A stretch of 64,000 nt of DNA. Origin: Candidatus Udaeobacter sp. (GTDB lineage Bacteria > Verrucomicrobiota > Verrucomicrobiia > Chthoniobacterales > UBA10450). This document shows positions 10,297 to 61,510 of the stretch, one piece after another (position 1 is the first letter of the stretch; every line of letters starts with the position of its first letter). The translations under genes were made by a program, and so were the position numbers. The stretch spans positions 3,235 through 67,234 of the forward strand of contig DASREQ010000069.1 in the NCBI GenBank assembly GCA_035651975.1, in the 5' to 3' direction. Under the pieces are notes generated by a model, which saw only the letters and a program-made list of their open reading frames with translations, had not been told where the DNA came from and did not search any database.

Positions 10297-10749
10297 ATGG
10301 ATGTTAGCGGTACGATCGGCGCGATTCTGAGTCAGAAAAGCAAAGATATTTTTTCCATTCGATCCGACGCATTGGTTTTTGAAGCGATTGAAATGATGGA
10401 TGAAAAAAATGTCGGTGCGTTGTTGGTGATGGATGGAGATCGATTGAATGGGATCATTTCCGAGCGCGATTACACCCGCAAGGTTTTCCTCCGCGGCAAA
10501 CGTTCGCGGGAAACCAAGGTTTCCGAGATCATGTCAACCAATGTGACTGTTACGCATCCGCGCGAACCAGTAGAGAAATGTCTGCGGCTGATGACGGACA
10601 AGCACATTCGGCATCTGCCCGTGGTCGAAGGCGATCGGGTGGTGGGGGTGATCTCGATCGGTGACCTCGTTAAACACGTCATTTCCTGTCAGCAGGCCGC
10701 CATTGCACACCTGGAAAATTACATCCACGGCGGATACGTTGCGGGGTAG
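10297..10749 (+). CDS. CBS domain-containing protein (tandem CBS pair)
   Basis: 150 aa with two CBS repeats (VGALLVMDGDRLNGIISERD and IRHLPVVEGDRVVGVISIGDL). Confidence 0.85.
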   Translation: MDVSGTIGAILSQKSKDIFSIRSDALVFEAIEMMDEKNVGALLVMDGDRLNGIISERDYTRKVFLRGKRSRETKVSEIMSTNVTVTHPREPVEKCLRLMTDKHIRHLPVVEGDRVVGVISIGDLVKHVISCQQAAIAHLENYIHGGYVAG

Positions 10750-10753
10750 ATTT

Positions 10754-10812
10754 GCAGGCGTCTGTGTCAGACGCCCACCCAGTTAGATCGGCGTTTCGCA
10801 GAAACGCCCTAC
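10754..10812. repeat. REPIN-type double hairpin (copy A)
   Basis: GCAGGCGTCTG-tgt-CAGACGCC, then 14 nt, then GGCGTTTC-gca-GAAACGCCCTAC. It is nearly identical to the reverse complement of 45832-45890. Confidence 0.85.
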
Positions 10813-12125
10813 AGCTTCCAAACCGTCTTGCCGCCGACGATTGTTCGGACCGCTCGACCTTTCAGCTTCCAATCGTCGAAAGGCGAATTGCGAGAGGCCG
10901 ATTGAAATCGATCGATGTTAACAGTCCACTTCAGGCCCGGATCGATTAGCGTGACGTCGGCGCGGGTGCCAGGTGACAAAGTGCCCGCATCGAGCTTTAA
11001 CAAGCGCGCCGGCTCGATGGTGTACATCTCAATCAAACGCCCGATGTCGATGCTGGCGTGTTTATGCACGAGCAGATCGATAAAAAGACCGAGCTCGGTC
11101 TCCAATCCAATGATACCAAATGGCGCGACGTCGAACTCGACTTCCTTTTCGAAATCCGCGTGCGGCGCGTGATCGGAACACAAGATCGATACGGTCCCAT
11201 CGCTGATGCCCTCCAGCAATGCCTCGACATCTGTTTGCGAGCGCAGCGGCGGATTCATTTTGTAGTTCGTGTCGAAATTCTGGATCGCCTCGTCAGTTAA
11301 CGCGATGTGATGCGGACAAACCTCCCCGCTTATTTTTACACCGCGCTTTCGAGCTTCCCGAAGTAGCCGGACGCTGCCGGCTGCAGTGAGGTGTTGGCAA
11401 TGGATCGGGTGGTCGCAAAGTTCCGCGAGCAGAATATTGCGCATCACCATCGTTTCTTCGCCTGCAGCAGGCCAGCCGGGTAAACCCAGCAGCGTGCTCC
11501 AGTAGCCCTCGTGAATAACCCCATTGCCGACCAGATTGTAATCCTGACAATGATCGAGCACCGGCAAATCAACCATGCGAGCATACTCGACCGCGCGTCG
11601 CATCACCTCGTGGTTTTGAATGCAATGACCATCATCGGTGATCGCCACAACGCCTGCCTTCGCGAGAGATCCGATGGAGGCGAGCTCCTCACCCGCGAGG
11701 TCTTTTGAAATTGCGCCGGCTGGCAAAACATTCACACATGCCACTTCCGCCGCGCGATCTTTGATCCACGCAATCGTGCTGGGATTGTCCGAAGCTGGCG
11801 AAGTATTCGGCATGCAGACAACCGTGGTGAATCCACCCGCTGCTGCCGCGCGTGCGCCCGACTCAATTGTTTCCTTGTGACTGAATCCGGGCTCGCGCAG
11901 GTGGACATGCATGTCGATCAAACCCGGTGCAACGATCAAACCTTTCGCGTCAATCTCTTCGATTTCAGGTCGCCCGCGGCGGGTAAACTGCTCGCGGATT
12001 CCGGATTGAGCGGCAATCCTTCCCTCAACGATCAAAAGGTCGGCGATTTCGTCTCGCTTGTTTGCAGGATCGATCACGCGGCCGTGTCGAATGATGGTCG
12101 TGCTCACGCCGAGATCCCTCCGCAT
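10809..12125 (-). CDS. pyrC: dihydroorotase
   Basis: Motifs [10 protein letters not shown], ...DHAPH... and a TIM-barrel amidohydrolase layout. The ORF is open to 12257, but that part overlaps pyrB. Likely starts are ATG 12125 or GTG 12107, the latter in a GTGA overlap with the pyrB stop. Confidence 0.9.
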
Positions 12126-13033
12126 AGATAGAGGACAGCCATGCGAACAGCGAGGCCGTTGGTGACTTGATCGAGAATGACGCTGTGCAATCCATCGGCG
12201 ACCTCGCTGTCGATCTCGACTCCGCGGTTGATGGGACCGGGATGCATGATGAGACAATCTGGTTTTAGCAGTTTGGCGCGCTCTTTGGTGAGACCGAAGA
12301 ACCGAATGTATTCGCCGATTCCGGGAAAATATTCTCTACGCTGGCGTTCGTGCTGAATGCGCAAAAGATTTACCACATCGGCTTTGGGCAGTACCTCGTC
12401 GATCTTGTGGGAAATTTCGACCCCAAGTTTCGCAAATTCGCGGGGAACCAATGTGCTTGGGCCGACCAGCGTGACGCGTGCGCCGAGCTTGAGCAGACCA
12501 AAAATGTTCGAGCGCGCAACGCGACTAAACAAGATATCGCCGACGATCGCCACGTGCAGCCCGGCGATCTGCCCTCGCTTTTCGCGGATTGTGTAGAGGT
12601 CGAGCAATGCCTGAGTGGGATGCTCGTGCGCCCCGTCGCCGGCGTTGATCACGCTCGCTTTCAGCCGATTCGCCAGGAATTGTGGTGCGCCAGCCGAGCT
12701 GTGACGAAGCACGAGAATATCGGCATGCAATGCCTGCAGATTGCGCGCGGTGTCTTTGAGTGTTTCGCCTTTGGTCAGACTGGAAGTAATTGCTGAGAGA
12801 TTGATTACGTCTGCGCTCAGCCGAAGCGCGGCCAGCTCAAAAGAGGTGCGTGTCCGCGTGCTCGGCTCGACGAAAAAATTCACCAATGTTTTTCCGCGCA
12901 GCGACGGGACCTTCTTGATCTCGCGGGTACCGACCTGCTTGAATGCGTCGGCGGTTTCCAGAATAAAATTGATTTCGCCTGCCGAAAGTTCGCGCAGGCC
13001 TAACAGATCTTTTCGTATCCAGTGTGCGGTCAT
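12104..13033 (-). CDS. pyrB: aspartate carbamoyltransferase catalytic subunit
   Basis: Motifs [17 protein letters not shown] and HPGP. ATG 13033 ([13 protein letters not shown]) fits family N-termini and clears the pyrR stop at 13065. Confidence 0.93.
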
Positions 13034-16974: not shown

Positions 16975-17122
16975 CCGCCCGGGAGCCATGGCTGGCTATC
17001 TTGTTGTAGCCGCCATCATTGATGCCTGTCTCCGAAATGCAGGCACTGCCGTAGAGATTACCAATTCCGGCCCCAGATGAGGCGGTCGAATTCGATCGCC
17101 GCTGGCCGGACGCCTGCACTGC

Positions 17123-20093: not shown

Positions 20094-21746
20094 GTGAACG
20101 ATCGAGTGGGGGCTCGCGAGCGGCTGATTTCGTTCCTTGAATCGCCTGCCTCGTATCTACACCAGCCGGCGGAAGTTCACGCCATTCAAACCCACATCTC
20201 GTGGGTCTTCATGGCGTCGCCGTTTGTCTTCAAGGTGAAAAAGCCGGTGAATCTCGGCTTCCTCGATTTCAGCACGCTGGAAAAACGCCGCTACTTTTGC
20301 CAGCGCGAGATTGAATTGAACCGGCGACTCTGTCCGGGGATTTATCTCGACACGGTTCCCATTTACGAGACTGATTCCGGTTTTTCGTTCAAACCACCGG
20401 GCGACATCGTCGAGTATGCCGTCAAAATGAAAGAACTGCCGGACGGCTGGTTCTTAAGCGAGTTGCTCGAGAAAAGTTTGGTCGGTGAAAAGGAGATCAA
20501 CCGCGTGATCTCCACCCTGCATCGATTTTATCAGGAGGAAACTCCGACGTTCGAAATCGAACAATGGGGCACACCCGAAAAGTTAAAGATCAGCACCAAC
20601 GAAAACTTCGCGCAGGTAGAGCCATTCGTTGGCAAGACAATCTCGCGCCCCGCCTTCGAAGCCATTCGTCATTTCACAAACCGGTTCTACACCGTGAAGG
20701 AAAACCTTTTCTGTGAACGAATTCAGCAGCACCGGATTCTCGATTGCCATGGCGATTTGCATCTCGATCATGTCCATCTCGCTCCGGACGCGACCACCAT
20801 CTTTGATTGCATCGAATTCAACGATCGATTCCGTTTCATCGATATCGCCAACGACCTCGCATTTCTGGCGATGGATTTCGATTTCAAAGGGCGAAGCGAT
20901 CTGGGAAACCTGCTTCTGCGAAATGCCGCGCGCGAATCAGGCGACGCAGGAATGCTGAAAGTCGCGAATTTCTATAAGTGCTATCGCGCGTTCGTTCGCG
21001 GAAAGGTCGAAAGCATCCAGGCGACAGAGAAAGAAACGACCAACCCGCAGGAGCACGAAAGACAAGCGGCTCGCTATTTTCGTCTCGCGCTTCGGTATGC
21101 CATCGCCGGCTCCGAGCCATTGATTCTTGTCGTAATGGGCCGGATCGGCACGGGCAAGAGCACTATGGCGAAACGACTTGCCAGCGAGTTGGATTGGCCG
21201 GTCTTCTCCTCCGACGAAATTCGCAAGACACTGGCCGGCCTTCCGCTTACGAGACGAACGCCGCCAGAATTGCGCGACAAAATCTATTCGGCGCAAATGA
21301 CGCGACGAACCTACAGGAACCTTTTTAAAGAGGGTTTCACCGCGATCGGTTGCTGTAGCCGAGGGCGCCGATCTCGGCTGGTTCCACCTCACAACGGCGT
21401 CATTCTCGATGCCAAATTTTCGACGCGCGCCCTCCGCAAATTTCTTTGCGACGAATGCAAGAAAGCGAACGTGCCAATTCAGTTCATAGAACTCGAGGTC
21501 GGTCCCAATGAAATCAAAAAACGGCTTAAGCTCCGCAATGAAAAAACGGCCGAAGCATCCGATGCTCGCCTCGAAGACTTCGAGAAGTTGAGCGCGGCTT
21601 ACGAGCCACCATCTGAAGTCGGGCCTGACTTAATCAGAATTTCAACGAAGACATCGGTTTCCGACACTGTGAAAGCCATCTTGCTGTGCCTGGCCGAAAA
21701 GCAATCACTTGCGACCAACAACGCCCGCTTTGTTGGATCTCGCTAG
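20094..21746 (+). CDS. bifunctional aminoglycoside-phosphotransferase-like kinase / P-loop (AAA/zeta-like) kinase domain protein
   Basis: The N-terminal half is protein-kinase/APH-like (ILDCHGDLHLDHVHL...FDCIEFNDRFRFIDIANDLAFL). The C-terminal half has a P-loop (VVMGRIGTGKSTMAKRLA). It starts with GTG. Confidence 0.72.
   Translation: MNDRVGARERLISFLESPASYLHQPAEVHAIQTHISWVFMASPFVFKVKKPVNLGFLDFSTLEKRRYFCQREIELNRRLCPGIYLDTVPIYETDSGFSFKPPGDIVEYAVKMKELPDGWFLSELLEKSLVGEKEINRVISTLHRFYQEETPTFEIEQWGTPEKLKISTNENFAQVEPFVGKTISRPAFEAIRHFTNRFYTVKENLFCERIQQHRILDCHGDLHLDHVHLAPDATTIFDCIEFNDRFRFIDIANDLAFLAMDFDFKGRSDLGNLLLRNAARESGDAGMLKVANFYKCYRAFVRGKVESIQATEKETTNPQEHERQAARYFRLALRYAIAGSEPLILVVMGRIGTGKSTMAKRLASELDWPVFSSDEIRKTLAGLPLTRRTPPELRDKIYSAQMTRRTYRNLFKEGFTAIGCCSRGRRSRLVPPHNGVILDAKFSTRALRKFLCDECKKANVPIQFIELEVGPNEIKKRLKLRNEKTAEASDARLEDFEKLSAAYEPPSEVGPDLIRISTKTSVSDTVKAILLCLAEKQSLATNNARFVGSR
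21353..21379 (+). repeat. REP-like unit (CTGTAG + hairpin) inside the kinase CDS
   Basis: CTGT-AGCCGAG-ggcgccgat-CTCGGCT. The GTAG overlaps a 7-bp stem. Confidence 0.5.
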
Positions 21747-25315: not shown

Positions 25316-25339
25316 GACGCCGCGGCCCGGCGTCACTAC
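25316..25339 (-). repeat. REP unit directly after the icmF catalytic-part stop
   Basis: The minus strand reads GTG TAG GTAG-T-GACGCCG-ggccg-CGGCGTC. GTAG is followed by a 7-bp stem with a 5-nt loop. Confidence 0.65.
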
Positions 25340-34050: not shown

Positions 34051-35091
34051 TCAGGCGCCCGCACTATCCAGCACTGTCGTTGCAAGTCGGAAGACCTCTG
34101 CTGCGCAGCCCCAGGAGAGCGTGAACCCTGCGCCGCCGTGGCCGTAGTTGTGGATCACCGTGCGGCCGTCGCTCAGACCGGCACGTTCAACGCGAACGCC
34201 TGCTTTGCGAAAGGGCCGCAACCCGACGCGCTCGACGAGAACATTCGGTTTCTCAATCCCCAATGTACGAGCGCATTCGGCGACGATTCGCGTAGTTGTT
34301 GCGTCGTCAACGGCAAGATTATCGCTGAGCTCATTTGTTCCTCCGAAAACGCAATCGTTCGTACGTGGGATCGCGTACATGAGCGGCGTGTCATCACAGA
34401 CAACGGCGTATGGAAGATCTTCGATCCTTGGAACAATCGCGACCTGGCCCCGGTGCGGCTCAAGATCGGCGTCCTGGACGAGTTCGCGGGCGCCGATTCC
34501 CGCGCAGTTAATCACAAGATCGAACTTTGGATTGACGTGTTCGAGCTTCTCGAAGCGCACGTTTTCGGTGATTTGGCCATCGGCTTTCAAGAACCGGTTC
34601 ACCAGATGGTCGAGATAAATGGTCGTGTCCATCAGCGGAACTCGCAGTGAGAAACCACTCTTGAAATGCTGTCGTCGCCTCGCTGTCTCGAGGCGCTTCC
34701 CCCGCGATCCATCAGCACGGCGACGCAGCGCCGTGGCTACAGCCGAAAGCCTGCGCGCGCCGAGCGAAGTTGCCCAGTCTGGAATCGCAATTTTCCCAGT
34801 GCGAGAAAATTGTCGGAGCTCGATCAAGGAAACGCCGCTGTCGGGACCGCGAGCCAGATCGATCAGCGTCCGGCAGGTCTCGAGCGCCCACGGGATGACT
34901 TTATCCGCAGGCTCCACGTCATAGGGAAACCAGAGCGCCGCAGCGGCTCCGGACGTTGTCTGCTGCCCGATTTTCTTTGCGAAGATCGTTGTGCGATGTC
35001 CACGCTCGGCGAAAGCGATGCCGCAGGTGAGACCGGAGACGCCTGCGCCTACGATTGCTACTTGATGCTGCATCCGAACATCTACGTGCAA
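34051..35091 (-). CDS. FAD-dependent D-amino-acid oxidase
   Basis: N-terminal dinucleotide fold (VAIVGAGVSGLTCG) and the C-terminal DAAO hallmark HNYGHGGAGFTLSWGCA. It contains an Arg-rich insertion encoded by a double hairpin (see findings). Confidence 0.8.
   Translation of the reverse strand: MHVDVRMQHQVAIVGAGVSGLTCGIAFAERGHRTTIFAKKIGQQTTSGAAAALWFPYDVEPADKVIPWALETCRTLIDLARGPDSGVSLIELRQFSRTGKIAIPDWATSLGARRLSAVATALRRRADGSRGKRLETARRRQHFKSGFSLRVPLMDTTIYLDHLVNRFLKADGQITENVRFEKLEHVNPKFDLVINCAGIGARELVQDADLEPHRGQVAIVPRIEDLPYAVVCDDTPLMYAIPRTNDCVFGGTNELSDNLAVDDATTTRIVAECARTLGIEKPNVLVERVGLRPFRKAGVRVERAGLSDGRTVIHNYGHGGAGFTLSWGCAAEVFRLATTVLDSAGA
34669..34744. repeat. REPIN-like double hairpin inside the D-amino-acid oxidase CDS
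   Basis: CTGTCGT-CGCCTCG-ctgtct-CGAGGCG, then 20 nt, then CACGGCG-acgcag-CGCCGTG-GCTACAGCC. The right end matches the CTACAG tail of other copies. Confidence 0.6.
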
Positions 35092-35122
35092 TAGACCGCG
35101 GCGTCATATAAAGTGGCGCGTA

Positions 35123-36214
35123 ATGGTCTCCTTAAATCGAGATGGACTAGCGGACAAGGTGCTTGCAGGCGAACGAATTTCGGCGGACCAGGCGCTCGAA
35201 TTATATCGCTGGCCGCTGGAGGAACTGGGCGCGCTGGGTAATGTGAGGCGCGATTTGGCAAAGGCGAAAAGTTACGCTGGACGTGGACGTGAGATCGTCA
35301 CCTACATCGTCGATCGAAACATCAATTACACGAACGTTTGCAACGTTTACTGCAAGTTCTGCGCGTTTTATCGAACGGAGAAGGATGAGGATCATTACGT
35401 GCTCTCGTTCGAGCAGATCGATCAGAAACTGGACGAACTTTCCGCCGTTGGGGGTGTTCAAATCCTGATGCAAGGGGGGCATCATCCGAAATTGCCGTTC
35501 CAATGGTACATCGATCTGCTGCGTCACATCCGGGAGAAATATCCGCACATCAATATCCACGGATTTAGTCCGCCGGAGTTTCAGCATTTCGCGGAGACTT
35601 TCCGGATGCCGCTACGCGAAGTGATTTTGGAATTTAAACGCGCCGGACTTGGATCAATTCCTGGTGGTGGCGGCGAAATTCTGGTGGACCGGGTACGGAA
35701 AAAAATTTCGCCGTTGAAAATCGACAGCGATCAATGGTTGCAGGTGATGCAAACGGCACACGAGCTCGGATTGAAGTCGAGTGCGACGATGATGTTTGGA
35801 CACGTTGAAACCATTGAAGACCGGATCGAACATCTGGAGCGCATCCGCAATCAGCAGGACCACAGCGGCGGATTTACGGCGTTCATCTGCTGGACGTTTC
35901 AACCTCAGCACACGGTCTTAAAGGTGAAGCACCCGACCGGCGTGGCCGAGTATTTGCGGATGCAGGCACTCGCCCGGATTTTTTTGGACAACATCGACAA
36001 TATCCAAAGCTCCTGGGTAACGCAGGGTCCGGAGATTGGCCAGATCGCACTCCGATACGGCGCGAACGATTTCGGATCGGTGATGATGGAAGAAAACGTC
36101 GTCAGCAGCGCAGGGACAACATTTCGATTGGATGCCGGACAAATTGAATCGCTTATTCGCGACGCGGGCTACGAACCCCGCCGGCGAAATAACTGGTATG
36201 AACTTTTGAATTGA
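35123..36214 (+). CDS. radical SAM menaquinone (futalosine pathway) enzyme, MqnC/MqnE family
   Basis: Radical SAM motif NINYTNVCNVYCKFCAFYR (CxxxCxxC), with CofH/MqnC/MqnE-like length and C-terminal pattern. I cannot separate MqnC from MqnE by eye. Confidence 0.8.
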   Translation: MVSLNRDGLADKVLAGERISADQALELYRWPLEELGALGNVRRDLAKAKSYAGRGREIVTYIVDRNINYTNVCNVYCKFCAFYRTEKDEDHYVLSFEQIDQKLDELSAVGGVQILMQGGHHPKLPFQWYIDLLRHIREKYPHINIHGFSPPEFQHFAETFRMPLREVILEFKRAGLGSIPGGGGEILVDRVRKKISPLKIDSDQWLQVMQTAHELGLKSSATMMFGHVETIEDRIEHLERIRNQQDHSGGFTAFICWTFQPQHTVLKVKHPTGVAEYLRMQALARIFLDNIDNIQSSWVTQGPEIGQIALRYGANDFGSVMMEENVVSSAGTTFRLDAGQIESLIRDAGYEPRRRNNWYELLN

Positions 36215-41947: not shown

Positions 41948-42727
41948 TTAGTCGCGAATCAAAGGACGTAATTCATTGTCTGACAACAAACGATAACGAA
42001 TTGCCCTGCCCGCGTCACGCTCAAGCAATGCCGCCTCGATTGCAGCGCCTGCGAGTTGTTCCTGTCGATGTTTCCTTACTGCAGCGCGCTCTGGTGGTTC
42101 CTTTGTGTCGCTGGTTTGTAAAGTCATATGCCCGATGCTCCATGCATCGAGCGCGGAATTGAGTGCCGTCTCAAGGTTGGCATCCGCTGAGTGCTGAGTC
42201 GCGAGAAATACTTCCATCAGCTCTCTTGATTGCTCTGTCCCACTGAGCGCGGCGAAGTCCCGCCGCGCCTGCGCGTACGTGGCGCCGTTGCTGGCGATCT
42301 CACCATCGTATTCTACTCGTAAAAACAAATCCTCTTCGGGTTGTTCTCCGACCTCCGCGAAGAGCATCCGTGCCAGGTATGGTGGCCCATAAATCTGTTC
42401 AAATGCGGTCTTCATTGCCGGACTAAGCGAGTAATGCGCCAGGCGTCGCAACGAAACATCCGCCGCCGAACGGGTGAAGCCTTCCGTGCTGGCCAGCTCG
42501 ATCGCCGCCATTCGCAATCTTTCGATGTCCCCGGGATGACCGATCGCACCCATCGCAATCCGGTCGTAGATCTCAAAAATCTTCTGACGCGTCTGGCCCA
42601 GGGTGACAAACAAAATGCCGTCGCCATAACCGAGCGCTGCGATCGGGCTGCCCGGAGCGAGCTGCGCTTCGATGTACTCGCGCCGGTTAGCGATCGCTTC
42701 GACCCAACGATACGGCTCTTCAATCAT
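41948..42727 (-). CDS. prcA: 20S proteasome alpha subunit (PrcA-like)
   Basis: Colinear by eye with my recollection of actinobacterial PrcA (...EAIANRREYIEAQLA.GSPIAALGYGDGILFVT...KIFEIYDRIAMGAIG...LRVEYDGEI...), including the C-terminal tail. Its ATG overlaps the prcB stop (ATGA 42724-42727). Confidence 0.85.
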   Translation of the reverse strand: MIEEPYRWVEAIANRREYIEAQLAPGSPIAALGYGDGILFVTLGQTRQKIFEIYDRIAMGAIGHPGDIERLRMAAIELASTEGFTRSAADVSLRRLAHYSLSPAMKTAFEQIYGPPYLARMLFAEVGEQPEEDLFLRVEYDGEIASNGATYAQARRDFAALSGTEQSRELMEVFLATQHSADANLETALNSALDAWSIGHMTLQTSDTKEPPERAAVRKHRQEQLAGAAIEAALLERDAGRAIRYRLLSDNELRPLIRD

Positions 42728-43548
42728 GCAACCGTTTCCTTAAACACCGCCGCAATTTTGCTCTCCGGCAACGTGGTGATTCCTTCGCGCGATACAATCT
42801 TGATAAGCGGATAAATCTTCCCGCTGCGATCTACGCCGCCTGTCGATGTGTCCGATTCCGCAGCGGTATCCAATGCACGCAACGCGATTGATACTGCTTC
42901 GTCTTCGCCTAATTCCTGCAGCGGCTTGGCTCCCCAATTGTTTTCGTAATAAAGAATGCCCCGCACCGCCGGCGATCCGGACCCCGTCGCTGCGTAATCA
43001 GCCACTTCAAATTGTGCACCCATTGCGTCGTAAAAATAAAGCCGCGCCTCGGGCTTCGGATGAGAATCGTAGGTCGCGAAGATCGGCACCACGACTCCGA
43101 TGCCCTGCATGACGGACCCGAAGTTGTCGCGCAACAGCTTCGACAGAGCGCGCACTTTGCCGTCAACACTCATTTCCTGCAGTTGCGTTCGGCGAAAGTA
43201 TTGAAATGAGTGTTCGAGCACGCGCGCCATTTCCCACGCCGTTGCCGGCACACCGGCAATGGCCATGATCGAGTGTCGATCGATTTCCAAAACTTTGTCG
43301 GCGCGATCATACACAACTGTATTACCAGCGGTTGCGCGGCGGTCGCCTGCCACCAACACGCCGCCTGAAAATTTGAAAGCGAGAATGGTGGTTGCTTCCG
43401 TCGGTTGCCACGTCTTTTGAGGCGCTCCGCCTTGCGGCACGGGATTCGCAGTTGCCGGGGTCAGCAAGCCTTTGCGACGCAACAGCGCAGAGAAATCGCC
43501 CGCTGCGCCAGAGAAATTCTGGTCAAACGCAACCGGGAAGCGGTCCAT
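42724..43548 (-). CDS. prcB: 20S proteasome beta subunit (PrcB-like) with ~52-aa propeptide
   Basis: ...TEA|TTILAFKFSGGVLVAGDRRATAGN.V......KV.EID carries the Thr-1 nucleophile context. I chose ATG 43548, which overlaps the TAA of the upstream small ORF by 1 nt. The ORF is open to 43686. Confidence 0.88.
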   Translation of the reverse strand: MDRFPVAFDQNFSGAAGDFSALLRRKGLLTPATANPVPQGGAPQKTWQPTEATTILAFKFSGGVLVAGDRRATAGNTVVYDRADKVLEIDRHSIMAIAGVPATAWEMARVLEHSFQYFRRTQLQEMSVDGKVRALSKLLRDNFGSVMQGIGVVVPIFATYDSHPKPEARLYFYDAMGAQFEVADYAATGSGSPAVRGILYYENNWGAKPLQELGEDEAVSIALRALDTAAESDTSTGGVDRSGKIYPLIKIVSREGITTLPESKIAAVFKETVA

Positions 43549-44991: not shown

Positions 44992-46887
44992 TCAGCAGAT
45001 TGGCAATTGTTCCTCTGCTTCGGGCGTCTGGGCGGCGGGAAGCTGTGCGGGCGACTCTGTTTCCCGTGGCGGCGAAGTTTCGAGCAAACTTTGCCGGCAT
45101 AGCCGCGCATATTTTCCGTCGAGCGCCAGCAATTCGTCGTGTGTGCCGCGCTCGATAATCCGGCCATGATCGAGTACCAGAATTTGGGTCGCATGCACAA
45201 TCGTGGAAAGCCGGTGCGCGATGACAATCGATGTGCGGTTTGCCATCAGGCGCTCCAGCGCTTCCTGGATCAAACGCTCGGTCGCAGTATCGACACTTGC
45301 TGTTGCTTCATCGAGAATCAAAACTGGTGGATCTTTCAACAGCGCTCGGGCAATAGAGAGGCGTTGTTTTTCGCCTACGCTCAATTTCACTCCTCGCTCG
45401 CCCACCACGCTTTCCAACCCGTCTGGTAAGCGTTGGATAAAATGCTGCGCGTTTGCTGCGACCACCGCGCGCCATAATTCGGCGTCGGCCGCTCGCGGTT
45501 TTCCCATAAGAAGGTTTTCGCGGATCGATCCGTTGAACAAAAAACTTTCCTGCGTCACCACACCGATCGCCTCGCGCAATGCGCGCAGGTCATATTCGCG
45601 AATCGGTTTCCCGTCGATGTAGATTTGTCCACTGGTGAATTCATAGAAACGCACGAGCAGATTCACCAGTGTCGACTTACCCGCGCCGGTTGCGCCCACC
45701 AGCGCCACGGTCGCGCCTGGCGGTGCGTGAAAGCAAACATTCCTTAGCGCGGGCAATCCGTCCACGTAGCTGAAGCTGACGTCCTGATAGCGAATATCTC
45801 CCACGATGTGTGTGCTTTGGGCGGAAACCTTGTAGGGCGTTTCTGTGAAACGCCGAACCACAGCCCTGGCGTCTGACACAGACGCCCTACAATTGTCGTC
45901 CGACAGATATTTCTGTTGATCGCGACAACCCGGCTCGACGGGTTCATCGAGAATTTCAAATACGCGCTCGCCTGCCGCGCGCCCGGCCTGCACGAGTTGA
46001 TTGAGCTGATGTAACCGGCTCAGGGGATCGTAGAGAAACGCGATTAGCATTAAAAACGCGACCAGATCGCCGATCTGCATCGAACCGCTCAGGACCGCGC
46101 GACTGCCAAACCCCAGTACCAGTAGAGCGCCAATCGATTCAACCAGCGACATCGACGGGCTGTAAATCGCCCATACGCGCATCACCACGAGTGTGGCTCG
46201 TCTTAATTGGTCGCTTACCCTGTCAAACCGCGTGTGCTCTTCGTTCTCACGTGCAAAACTTTTGATCTGCCGGACGCCGGCCAGATTGTCGTGTAGCAGC
46301 GCGTTCATGTCTGAGGAGGCCCGGCGCTGCAAACGATACCGCCGATGGGCAGTCAGCGTGTACGTGAGCGTGCCGGCGACAAGTAACGGGAAGGGCACGA
46401 GCGCGAGCAACGCCAGCTTCGCGTCCAGATAAAACATCATGCCTATGACGATGAGTACCTGCAGAATGGCGACGACGCCCTGCTCGATTCCGTCAATCAA
46501 TACACGCTCGACCGAGTTGACGTCCTCAATCACGCGCGTCATCAGGTCGCCGGTGGCGCGGTTATCGAACCACCGCAGCGGCAGCAACTGGATGTGCGAA
46601 TACAAATCGCTGCGCAAATCGAAAATCACTTTTTGCTCAAACGTGTTGTTCAACACAATGCGCAGCGCATTGAACCCGTGCTGGAGAAGAAATGCGATCG
46701 CGGCAAGCGCGATTAGCGGCAGCAATTTGTCCGGACGATGTGCGCGTACGACGTCGTTGATGATCCATTTCGTGGTCGCGGGGAAAACAATCACCATCAG
46801 CGTGCTCAGGATGGCACACGTCAATGTCCCGGCGGCCATCCAAGGATACCGCTTCAAGTAAGCAAAAACGCGCCAAACGGTTTTCAT
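44992..46887 (-). CDS. ABC transporter, fused permease/ATP-binding protein (MsbA-like type I exporter)
   Basis: Six-TM domain, Walker A GATGAGKST, signature LSVGEKQR, Walker B ILILDEATS and H-loop IAHRL. It carries a REPIN-derived in-frame insertion between the TMD and NBD. Confidence 0.92.
   Translation of the reverse strand: MKTVWRVFAYLKRYPWMAAGTLTCAILSTLMVIVFPATTKWIINDVVRAHRPDKLLPLIALAAIAFLLQHGFNALRIVLNNTFEQKVIFDLRSDLYSHIQLLPLRWFDNRATGDLMTRVIEDVNSVERVLIDGIEQGVVAILQVLIVIGMMFYLDAKLALLALVPFPLLVAGTLTYTLTAHRRYRLQRRASSDMNALLHDNLAGVRQIKSFARENEEHTRFDRVSDQLRRATLVVMRVWAIYSPSMSLVESIGALLVLGFGSRAVLSGSMQIGDLVAFLMLIAFLYDPLSRLHQLNQLVQAGRAAGERVFEILDEPVEPGCRDQQKYLSDDNCRASVSDARAVVRRFTETPYKVSAQSTHIVGDIRYQDVSFSYVDGLPALRNVCFHAPPGATVALVGATGAGKSTLVNLLVRFYEFTSGQIYIDGKPIREYDLRALREAIGVVTQESFLFNGSIRENLLMGKPRAADAELWRAVVAANAQHFIQRLPDGLESVVGERGVKLSVGEKQRLSIARALLKDPPVLILDEATASVDTATERLIQEALERLMANRTSIVIAHRLSTIVHATQILVLDHGRIIERGTHDELLALDGKYARLCRQSLLETSPPRETESPAQLPAAQTPEAEEQLPIC
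45832..45890. repeat. REPIN-type double hairpin (copy B) inside the ABC exporter CDS
   Basis: GTAGGGCGTTTC-tgt-GAAACGCC, then 13 nt, then GGCGTCTG-aca-CAGACGCCCTAC. GTAG heads occur on both strands. Confidence 0.88.
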
Positions 46888-52522: not shown

Positions 52523-53887
52523 ATGCGAAAAGGACGATTCGACAAACCCGCGGCGGAAATGGCACAGCGCTACAGTGAATCTGTTTCCTTCGACTGGCGA
52601 CTTTATCCCTACGACATCGCGGGGTCGATTGCTCACGCCGCGGCGCTGGCTCGGGCTGGAATCATAACAACGGCCGAATGCCGGAAAATTGAGCGTGGAT
52701 TGCGCGCAGTCCAAAAGCAGATCGAATCGGGCAGATTCAAATGGGATCGATCACTCGAAGACGTGCACATGAACATCGAAGCGGCGGTGACGAAGCGAAT
52801 CGGAGCCGCGGGCGCGAAACTACATACGGCGCGTAGCCGAAACGATCAGATCGCGCTCGATCTGCGACTCTATGTAAAAGCCGGGATCGCGGAAGTGTCG
52901 CGCCGTTTGCGAAGTTTGCAGGCCGCTCTCCTCGACGTCGCGGAGCGGGACATGGACGTCGTAATGCCCGGCTACTCGCATTTGCAGCGAGCACAACCAA
53001 TCACTTTTTCGCATTATTTGCTTGGGCAGATAGAGGCCTTCGATCACGACACGAAACGGCTCCATGATTGCCTGACACGGACAGACGTTCTTCCACTCGG
53101 ATCCGGAGCGCTCGCCGGGTCGACTGTTGTTCTCGATCGCGAACGCGTCGCGCGCGATCTCGGTTTTTCGAGCGTCAGCCAAAATAGCGTCGATGCTGTC
53201 GGCGATCGTGATTTTGTCTGCGAGTTTCTTTTTTGTCTTGCCATGATCGGCATGCATCTCTCCCGTCTGAGTGAGGACTTGATCATTTGGAGCACCTCCG
53301 AGTTCGGCTTTCTGGAGTTCAGCGATTCTTTTTCCACGCACTCCAGTCTGATGCCGCAAAAAAAGAATCCGGACATGGCTGAATTAACGCGGGGCAAGAC
53401 TGGCCGGCTTTACGGAAATTTGGTATCGATCCTAACCACGATGAAAGCGCTTCCGTCTTCTTACAATCGCGACCTCCAGGAAGATAAGAAAGCACTGTTC
53501 GATTCTGTCGATACAATCAAAAGCGCGCTGGAAGTTTTTGCCGCGATGTTGCCTGAATTGAAAGTCAACCGCGAACGCATGGAGAACGCCGCCGGCGACC
53601 CAAATCTTCTGGCGACCGATTTGGCTGAGTATCTCGTGAAAAAGGGAACGCCTTTCCGTGAGGCGCACCGAATCGTTGGGGAGCTCGTTGCGCACTCCAT
53701 AACGAAAAGCATTCCACTGGATCAAATCGACGTCGCGGAAATGAAAAAGTTTTCACCACAGTTCAATGATGACGTGGCGAAGATTTTCGATGTTCGCGGT
53801 TCGCTTGCGCAACGGCGCGCAATCGGGGCTCCGTCACCTGGGAATGTCGCGGCACAGATTGAGCGCTGGCGCCAATTACTCGCCTGA
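52523..53887 (+). CDS. argH: argininosuccinate lyase
   Basis: Fumarate-lyase signature SSLMPQKKNPD plus TARSRNDQ and GYSHLQRAQP. Confidence 0.95.
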   Translation: MRKGRFDKPAAEMAQRYSESVSFDWRLYPYDIAGSIAHAAALARAGIITTAECRKIERGLRAVQKQIESGRFKWDRSLEDVHMNIEAAVTKRIGAAGAKLHTARSRNDQIALDLRLYVKAGIAEVSRRLRSLQAALLDVAERDMDVVMPGYSHLQRAQPITFSHYLLGQIEAFDHDTKRLHDCLTRTDVLPLGSGALAGSTVVLDRERVARDLGFSSVSQNSVDAVGDRDFVCEFLFCLAMIGMHLSRLSEDLIIWSTSEFGFLEFSDSFSTHSSLMPQKKNPDMAELTRGKTGRLYGNLVSILTTMKALPSSYNRDLQEDKKALFDSVDTIKSALEVFAAMLPELKVNRERMENAAGDPNLLATDLAEYLVKKGTPFREAHRIVGELVAHSITKSIPLDQIDVAEMKKFSPQFNDDVAKIFDVRGSLAQRRAIGAPSPGNVAAQIERWRQLLA

Positions 53888-54001
53888 ACTGTGGTGGCAG
53901 GCGTGTCGCCTGCAACATTCGAAAGGCCTGGTCCTCTACAGTTTTGATTGGAGAATCCAGGAATTGCCGCTGATGACAGCGGCCACTACACTGCACGCGT
54001 T

Positions 54002-61482: not shown

Positions 61483-61510
61483 GTAGGGACGGACCCCTGG
61501 GCCGTCCGTT
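61483..61510 (+). repeat. REP unit (GTAGGG + hairpin) between convergent genes
   Basis: GTAG-GGACGG-acccctggg-CCGTCC. A second hairpin, TGGCAGT-cgcgc-ACTGCCA, follows 17 nt downstream at 61527-61545. Confidence 0.6.

Follow-up and report, generated by a model that had tools for sequence, protein, structure and literature searches.

The window analyzed here is a 64,000-nt stretch of Candidatus Udaeobacter sp. DNA (C69:3235-67234) from a 2.97-Mb, 71-contig MAG with a G+C content of 54.7%, an estimated completeness of 91% and an estimated contamination of 3.6%. Two nearly identical pairs of hairpins lie in it, which we call copy A and copy B. A first-pass annotation of the window had placed both in a GTAG-headed REP/REPIN family, and we re-read them from the sequence. 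Copy A (10754-10812, plus strand) reads GCAGGCGTCTGTGTCAGACGCC, followed by the 14-nt spacer cacccagttagatc and by GGCGTTTCGCAGAAACGCCCTAC, and copy B, in the reverse complement of 45832-45890, reads GTAGGGCGTCTGTGTCAGACGCC, followed by the 13-nt spacer agggctgtggttc and by GGCGTTTCACAGAAACGCCCTAC, in both cases as had been claimed. Once the TT/AA flanks are counted, each copy is 63 nt long (10752-10814 and 45830-45892). Copy A, on the plus strand, consists of a left head reading TTGCAG, hairpin 1 (10757-10775; GGCGTCTG-TGT-CAGACGCC, an 8-bp stem with a 3-nt loop), the spacer, hairpin 2 (10790-10808; GGCGTTTC-GCA-GAAACGCC), and a right head, CTACAG, whose GTAG is read on the minus strand at 10809-10812. 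Copy B, on the minus strand, runs from TTGTAG to CTACAA and contains hairpin 1 at 45868-45886 (GGCGTCTG-TGT-CAGACGCC) and hairpin 2 at 45836-45854 (GGCGTTTC-ACA-GAAACGCC). Hairpin 1 is the same in the two copies (19/19), hairpin 2 differs by a single loop base (G/A), and the spacers are unrelated, all in agreement with the earlier description. The layout given there for each half, GTAG plus GG plus an 8-bp stem with a 3-nt loop, needs amendment in two respects. The GTAG and the hairpin with its 3-nt loop are present, but the GG does not precede the 8-bp stem, which takes it in; and an intact GTAG is found at three of the four heads, the left head of copy A being a degenerate GCAG with one G missing.

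Folded as ssDNA, copies A and B have energies of -17.1 and -20.2 kcal/mol (z-scores of -5.1 and -5.9, respectively), which none of 200 shuffles equaled. The minimum-energy fold of copy B is one long hairpin and that of copy A is two separate hairpins; the stems of the two halves differ. No T-run follows the hairpins of either copy, and an Rfam search over the whole window returned no family at threshold.

Sites occupied by REP doublets in the window

Copy A occupies the entire gap between two convergent genes, a CBS-domain gene (10297-10749, plus strand) and pyrC, which encodes a dihydroorotase-like amidohydrolase (10809-12257, minus strand; start uncertain). The last codon and stop of pyrC (CTG TAG) lie inside the right REP head, with the TAG at 10809-10811, and the stop codon of pyrC is therefore provided by copy A. 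We read the sequence of the same gap by eye in relatives and observed a GTAG/CTAC-tagged hairpin unit in 28 of 29, with the pyrC genes of these relatives ending in (T/C)TGTAG. The occupant belongs to copy A's subfamily in 12 relatives, and in the remainder it belongs to at least six other stem types, which are also genome-wide families. Other stem types are found even in the closest relatives, the flanks of which are 80-85% identical. Judged from these sequences, copy A appears to have resided for long in an intergenic slot that is conserved, and its head has probably been co-opted as the pyrC stop. On the other side of the gap, the TAG stop of the CBS-domain gene (10747-10749) sits in a GTAG (10746-10749) that ends 2 nt ahead of copy A's TTGCAG and that may be left over from an older head.

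Copy B lies within an intact ABC exporter gene (44992-46887, minus strand; 631 aa), in the linker between the ABC_membrane domain (residues 22-288) and the ABC_tran domain (residues 381-530). Both Pfam domains were found in the translation, and the Walker A, signature, Walker B and H-loop motifs are legible. The 63 nt of copy B amount to 21 codons and are translated in frame (…NCRASVSDARAVVRRFTETPYK…). The stretch from AAGERVFEILD to VSFSY is 40 residues long in outgroup orthologues and 40-100 residues long in Udaeobacter orthologues, the linkers of which are built of varied REP types or other small elements, all of them in frame. The linkers of two orthologues, L007 and L010, hold a clean unit of copy B's subfamily, 63 nt long, in which hairpin 2 shows a compensatory C/G swap. 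The linker of L016 holds a CCGCGATC/CGGGATC doublet instead, though its flanks are 96% identical to those of L007. The comparison of orthologues suggests that the exporter linker is tolerant of inserts and that copy B rides in it as an in-frame passenger. A longer in-frame element at the same linker in L014, L023 and L047 belongs to a different repeat family; it encodes ...SPLREGERIEVRGFS...PSPYPLPL.RRGE... and contributes approximately 50-60 extra residues.

The first-pass annotation had also listed several more diverged GTAG units in the window, and these fared unevenly. The unit at 34669-34744 (minus strand) is clearly a doublet, with other stems but of the same superfamily (CACGGCG / CGCCTCG), and it lies in frame in a D-amino-acid-oxidase-like gene (...VATALRRRADGSRGKRLETARRRQ...). 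Likewise, GTAG hairpins are present at 25316-25339 (minus strand; a single superfamily hairpin, GACGCCG-ggccg-CGGCGTC) and at 61483-61510 (plus strand; of the GGTAGGGACG... type), and all three units differ in type from copies A and B. The unit at 496-540, to which no strand was assigned, is a decayed doublet that has kept both of its heads while its hairpins have decayed (CTGTAGCCGC ... GCGGCTACAG), and the proposed units at 21353-21379, 53887-53941 and 16999-17060 are weak or degenerate. We compared the oxidase slot in 24 relatives, where it is 18-126 nt long and holds at least four element types; with a single exception, its length is divisible by three. The 27-nt form found in five relatives is likely the empty site. 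Thus, the occupant turns over at three orthologous slots, those between the CBS-domain gene and pyrC, in the ABC exporter linker and in the oxidase gene.

The doublet family in this genome and across the genus

Across the whole genome, the 19-mer of hairpin 1 occurs four times exactly and 13 times at up to two mismatches, in an assembly of a kind from which repeats and their neighbors are often absent. Almost every GGCGTCTG hairpin is partnered by an inverted GGCGTTTC-type hairpin 9-14 nt away, and several of these pairs have compensatory stem changes. The enrichment of GTAG-headed palindromes on which the REP reading depends is also observed. Counting hairpins that follow a GTAG within 3 nt (stems of 6 bp or more, one mismatch allowed), we found them at 199-200 of approximately 9,900 GTAGs, which is 20 per 1000; six control heads gave 2.5-5.4 per 1000, and the excess is 4- to 8-fold. 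GTAG is the most frequent 4-mer beside perfect hairpins of at least 7 bp. The head extends to yTGTAG, a T preceding the GTAG in 125 of 199 units. Approximately 200 units of this superfamily are dispersed over many contigs, and the most frequent 16-mers of the genome are fragments of them. Their stems are highly diverse (CGCCTCG, CACGGCG, CGCTTCGC, CGGCGGTC, AGGCGCTTG, GGCAAGCG and others); what recurs across stem types is the head and a TGT-containing loop. Since a MAFFT alignment of 103 units ignored differences in stem and loop geometry, we relied on our own hairpin scan and on pattern searches.

The doublet of copies A and B is laid out as two unlike hairpins, each with an 8-bp stem, a 3-nt loop and a yTGTAG on its outer side, so that the heads point outward. 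Of the 21 pairs of adjacent superfamily units within 150 nt of one another, 19 have this head-outward arrangement and two are arranged otherwise, and the spacer is mostly 13-24 nt. Three unlinked doublets, on contigs C29, C54 and C58, have a common insert of approximately 68 nt inside hairpin 2, indicating that the whole doublet was copied. The repeated unit behaves as a doublet and not as a single hairpin. Open frames of at least 60 codons on both sides surround 26% of the GTAG hairpins and 65% of random positions, and the hairpins are thus depleted from long frames. Those lying clearly within recognizable proteins, copy B included, are a minority, as called from open frames and recognizable proteins.

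The insert in hairpin 2 is itself a repeated element of approximately 68-72 nt (GAATGGAGC...GCGACATGGACGG...GAGCGA...GAGCGAATCA), found in the doublets at C29:~4000, C54:~77400 and C58:~65800. It is also present in frame in the oxidase genes of six relatives (L247, L250, L251, L257, L260 and L264), at the slot that holds the doublet in the window, and it seems to insert into hairpin loops.

We next compared genomes across the genus using the 23-mer GTAGGGCGTCTGTGTCAGACGCC at up to two mismatches. It was found in all 61 of the genus genomes sampled, at 1-62 copies per genome with a median of 13, and this genome, with eight, lies below the median. A reversed control pattern gave no match in any of the 61. 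The family is accordingly not confined to the two loci of the window, with 8-13 copies in this genome and 1-62 in each genome sampled. A second member of the genus, for which a 400-kb sample was scanned, has 19.4 GTAG hairpins per 1000, a rate equal to that observed here. Of two genomes from outside this family in the order, G024 has a weaker excess and a family of its own (GTAG-CCCAGCAA-ttca-TTGCTGGG), and G025 has no GTAG-hairpin excess.

RayT genes and the proposed mobilization of the doublets

No RAYT gene had been noticed in the window, and we found no Y1 or RAYT gene on the whole of its contig. In relatives, matches to the NCBIfam model NF047646 above its curated cut-off are present in 52 of 61 genus genomes, at up to 18 per genome. 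The RayT cognate to the doublets was traced by comparing the positions of REPs and RayTs in three copy-rich genomes. It is a 147-aa protein encoded at G056:C2:786417-786857, with the motifs PDHIHLL, RWQP and NYIRENPV, and a GGCGTTTC/GGCGTCTG doublet lies immediately upstream of its gene. Orthologues with at least 70% identity are intact in G018, G014 and G071 and broken by a stop, frameshift or truncation in G062, G041, G006 and G067. All eight of these RayTs are flanked by GTAG-GGCGTTTC-tgt-GAAACGCC and GTAG-GGCGTCTG-tgt-CAGACGCC, and in seven cases asd lies just upstream of the RayT. This asd-linked RayT is the only one that we found flanked by the exact hairpin pair, and it provides the REP-flanked Y1 transposase for which the first-pass annotation had proposed a search.

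For two orthologues of the cognate RayT, the sole NCBIfam match is REP_Tyr_transpos (NF047646), at 69.9 and 71.3 bits over the full length (10-145 of 146). These scores lie below the 80-bit cut-off of NF047646, which makes the cognate lineage RayT-like rather than a certified equivalog; a sister lineage scores 87.3 bits, and many other RayTs of the genus score 80-123 bits. In the PDB, the cognate RayT is matched best by E. coli TnpA-REP (4ER8), at approximately 19 bits by sequence. When the two are aligned, PDHIHLL, RWQP and NYIRENPV stand opposite PEHMHCI, WQP and DYIYINPV, and the HUH and Y...NP motifs are intact. The sister lineage, which is approximately 48% identical to the cognate one, is flanked by GGCAAGCG/GGCAGGCG doublets, nine further RayT loci are flanked by TTGTAGCCGGGATCGGTGATCCCGG, and many RayTs of the genus are flanked by inverted yTGTAG REPs with a stem type particular to each lineage. 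The median number of 23-mer copies is 29.5 in genomes with an orthologue of the cognate RayT and 11 in those without, a descriptive comparison that is uncorrected for relatedness. Three genomes with long contigs and 33-43 copies (G042, G046 and G050) are without a close orthologue, so that RayT and copy number are only loosely linked. When the assembly containing the window was searched by tblastn with the G056 RayT, only distant domains of 25-34% identity were found; the asd locus itself is unassembled.

RayT-like domains are encoded in this genome on contigs C16, C17, C15 and C58, and C58 also carries an intact IS200-like Y1 gene (C58:95236-95826; L001:1100-2000, minus strand), which passes the NCBIfam model transpos_IS200 at 76.6 bits. 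Its Y...Q..HH signature is that of subclass 1.2 of Quentin et al. (PMC6006769), and its flanks are inverted TAG-headed TAGCCCAGCGTTTCAACGCTGGG hairpins found at that locus only. We ruled out this gene as the partner of the doublets, given that its flanking hairpins (CCCAGCG-tttcaa) are unique to the locus and unrelated to the doublets in stem and loop. Likewise, in a test for an IS200/IS605-derived PATE/MITE, the ends of the doublets did not match its hairpins. A hairpin family related to these flanks is the GTAG-CCCAGCAA-ttca-TTGCTGGG family repeated in the outgroup genome G024. The RayT-like gene on C16 (approximately 42570-43470; L004:1300-2200, minus strand; motifs LPHW... and NHVH) was also ruled out, as its inverted flanking hairpins, GTGATGCAGRCAATCCTGYCTGC, are of another type. 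This gene is apparently frameshifted, its Y...NP motif (RNYISANPNKA) lying in another frame.

Two RayT domains are embedded in host genes. In the recG gene on C17 (L226:424-3207, minus strand; 927 aa), the DEAD domain is interrupted in frame by a RayT-type domain that is complete. The PDHVHLL and HYITRNP motifs of this RayT-type domain are intact, it scores 78.7 bits to NF047646, and translated inverted REPs of the GGGTAGCGCACGCGTCTCGCGTGCTGG family (GTAG-headed, GCACGCG-tct) lie on both sides of it. Elsewhere in the genus, RayT domains are repeatedly enclosed in open frames of approximately 900-1100 aa. The RecG proteins of G022 and G025, which belong to other families of the order, match along the insert, which is absent in G021, G023 and G024. 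A search of the available literature for a RayT inside recG returned no report. On C58 (approximately 34434-35651; L228:868-2085, minus strand), a partial RayT domain (model positions 56-145, YIRANPV) is fused in frame on the N-terminal side of a cytochrome c protein and is flanked by translated GTAGGGCGCGACCGCCGGGCGCGCC-type REPs.

The REP/REPIN reading of the doublets is supported by their dispersal throughout the genus, by the enrichment of GTAG heads and by the RayT that is flanked by the exact hairpins in relatives. The additional inference of the first-pass annotation, an active or recently active population in this genome, is at most a possibility, given that the cognate RayT was not found in the assembly, that the asd locus is missing from it and that the copy number lies below the genus median. 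The hairpin pair is associated with one RayT lineage, is dispersed as a doublet and is replaced by others at orthologous sites. Copies A and B are very probably REP doublets, non-autonomous elements copied by a RayT-type HUH/Y1 transposase, with copy A a slot resident and copy B an in-frame passenger. Bertels and Rainey would term such a doublet a REPIN, and in the vocabulary of Di Nocera et al. it is a GTAG-REP dimer arranged tail to tail. If RayT acts as E. coli TnpA-REP does (PMC3479197), a RayT dimer would bind the folded hairpin and its GTAG on ssDNA and would cut and rejoin the DNA beside the hairpin through a 5'-phosphotyrosine intermediate, and it would be the doublet as a unit that undergoes excision or copying and then reinsertion. 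We infer that RayT mobilizes the doublets, and by the same reasoning the reaction chemistry and the cleavage site.

The doublets could instead be host-function hairpins, such as bidirectional terminators or protectors of mRNA 3' ends, that are kept by selection and spread or homogenized by recombination or gene conversion without a transposase. We consider this improbable. The position of copy A exactly between convergent genes, the presence of a hairpin doublet in the CBS-pyrC slot of 28 of 29 relatives, the rarity of GTAG hairpins in long open frames (26%, compared with 65% for random positions) and the report that REPs lie mostly downstream of genes (PMC3733652) would all be expected of such hairpins. 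Against these stand the in-frame copies inside genes, where a terminator would harm, the lack of a following T-run, a copy number that ranges 60-fold among species and the fact that each stem type flanks its own RayT lineage. A co-opted role for single copies is compatible with mobilization by RayT and is no true alternative to it.

We attach a slightly lower probability still to movement of the doublets by an enzyme other than the asd-linked RayT, whether the IS200-like Y1 of the subclass 1.2 type on C58 or a RayT embedded in a host gene. Both kinds of gene are present in this genome, the former intact with inverted TAG-headed hairpins and the latter as the complete domain in RecG with GTAG REP flanks, and some copy-rich relatives are without an asd-linked RayT. 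Their flanking stems and loops, the locus-unique CCCAGCG-tttcaa and GCACGCG-tct, differ from those of the doublets, however, and the exact hairpin pair is found only around the asd-linked RayT. Chance similarity or an assembly artefact might be suspected in a MAG of 71 contigs with 3.6% estimated contamination, but this has a negligible probability: the sequence is present in 61 independent assemblies, in which the reversed control has no match, and independent MAGs have the same element at both the CBS-pyrC and ABC linker loci.

As regards the putative mobilization by RayT, the doublets have used the same sites repeatedly, and resident REPs or hairpins could therefore be preferred targets. 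We tentatively propose that new doublets might insert into or next to resident REPs rather than at random, such that a site would stay filled for as long as the genus exists, by one occupant after another, and the host would fix parts of the element, such as the head that supplies the pyrC stop or the in-frame linkers. We regard this as possible, though doubtful. If true, it would answer how REPINs choose their targets and would explain how a compact genome tolerates them, including the in-frame RayT cassettes in recG.

Comparison with known REP systems

Candidatus Udaeobacter, one of the most abundant bacteria in soil, is a cited case of genome reduction. Despite this reduction, every genome of the genus that we sampled has several co-resident REP families, with up to 18 RayT-type matches, and some of the elements are translated inside intact housekeeping genes. 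Since dozens of related genomes share the same RayT-REP pairs, with varied copy numbers and with both intact and broken RayTs, they constitute a natural data set, and the genus could be used to test REPIN-RAYT co-evolution, the decay of REPINs after loss of the RAYT and the choice of targets. For annotation, REPs explain odd Cys/Arg/Ala-rich protein inserts and hypervariable linkers, which are not new domains. Our literature search found no report of this REP family for Candidatus Udaeobacter.

The closest known elements are the GTAG-tagged REP families and REPtrons described by Di Nocera, De Gregorio and Rocco in 2013, several families of which are from the verrucomicrobium Opitutus terrae (PMC3733652). 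That work reported multiple REP families per genome, dimers with variable spacers, and intragenic REPs that encode 20-30 residues and are most numerous in O. terrae (PMC3733652). The Udaeobacter units resemble these REPs in having a hairpin tagged with GTAG at one end, in the co-residence of several stem families, in the predominance of dimers arranged tail to tail with variable spacers, and in lying mostly after genes with a sizeable in-frame set that encodes approximately 20-30 residues. As in REPtrons, RAYT genes are flanked by the same REPs. The Udaeobacter doublets differ from the O. terrae families in occurring in Chthoniobacterales, apparently in their stems and in their yTGTAG head.

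In the REPIN-RAYT systems of Pseudomonas fluorescens and Escherichia coli (PMC3116915; 4ER8, PMC3479197), as in Udaeobacter, an inverted doublet replicates, GTAG adjoins the hairpin, the cognate HUH/Y1 gene sits at a fixed, vertically inherited place amid its own REPs, and copy number varies among relatives. Unlike the REPINs of those species, the two halves of a Udaeobacter doublet have different stems, and copy A consequently folds as two hairpins, with only copy B able to form one long hairpin. The REPIN populations of Udaeobacter are small (eight copies here and up to 62 elsewhere) compared with the hundreds in P. fluorescens and E. coli, whereas matches to RayT number up to 18 per genome compared with one to three RayTs in those systems. 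A further likeness is to the Rickettsia palindromic elements (cited in PMC3733652), in which a palindromic repeat is translated at the surface or in a linker of a protein that is otherwise intact. The Rickettsia elements are longer or of the CGTC type and have no dedicated RAYT, whereas in Udaeobacter only a minority of the copies is intragenic, and their GTAG family has RayT partners. The Udaeobacter doublets fit the description of GTAG REPs (PMC3733652) in every respect that we tested, and they are an element of a kind already known, including from Verrucomicrobia.
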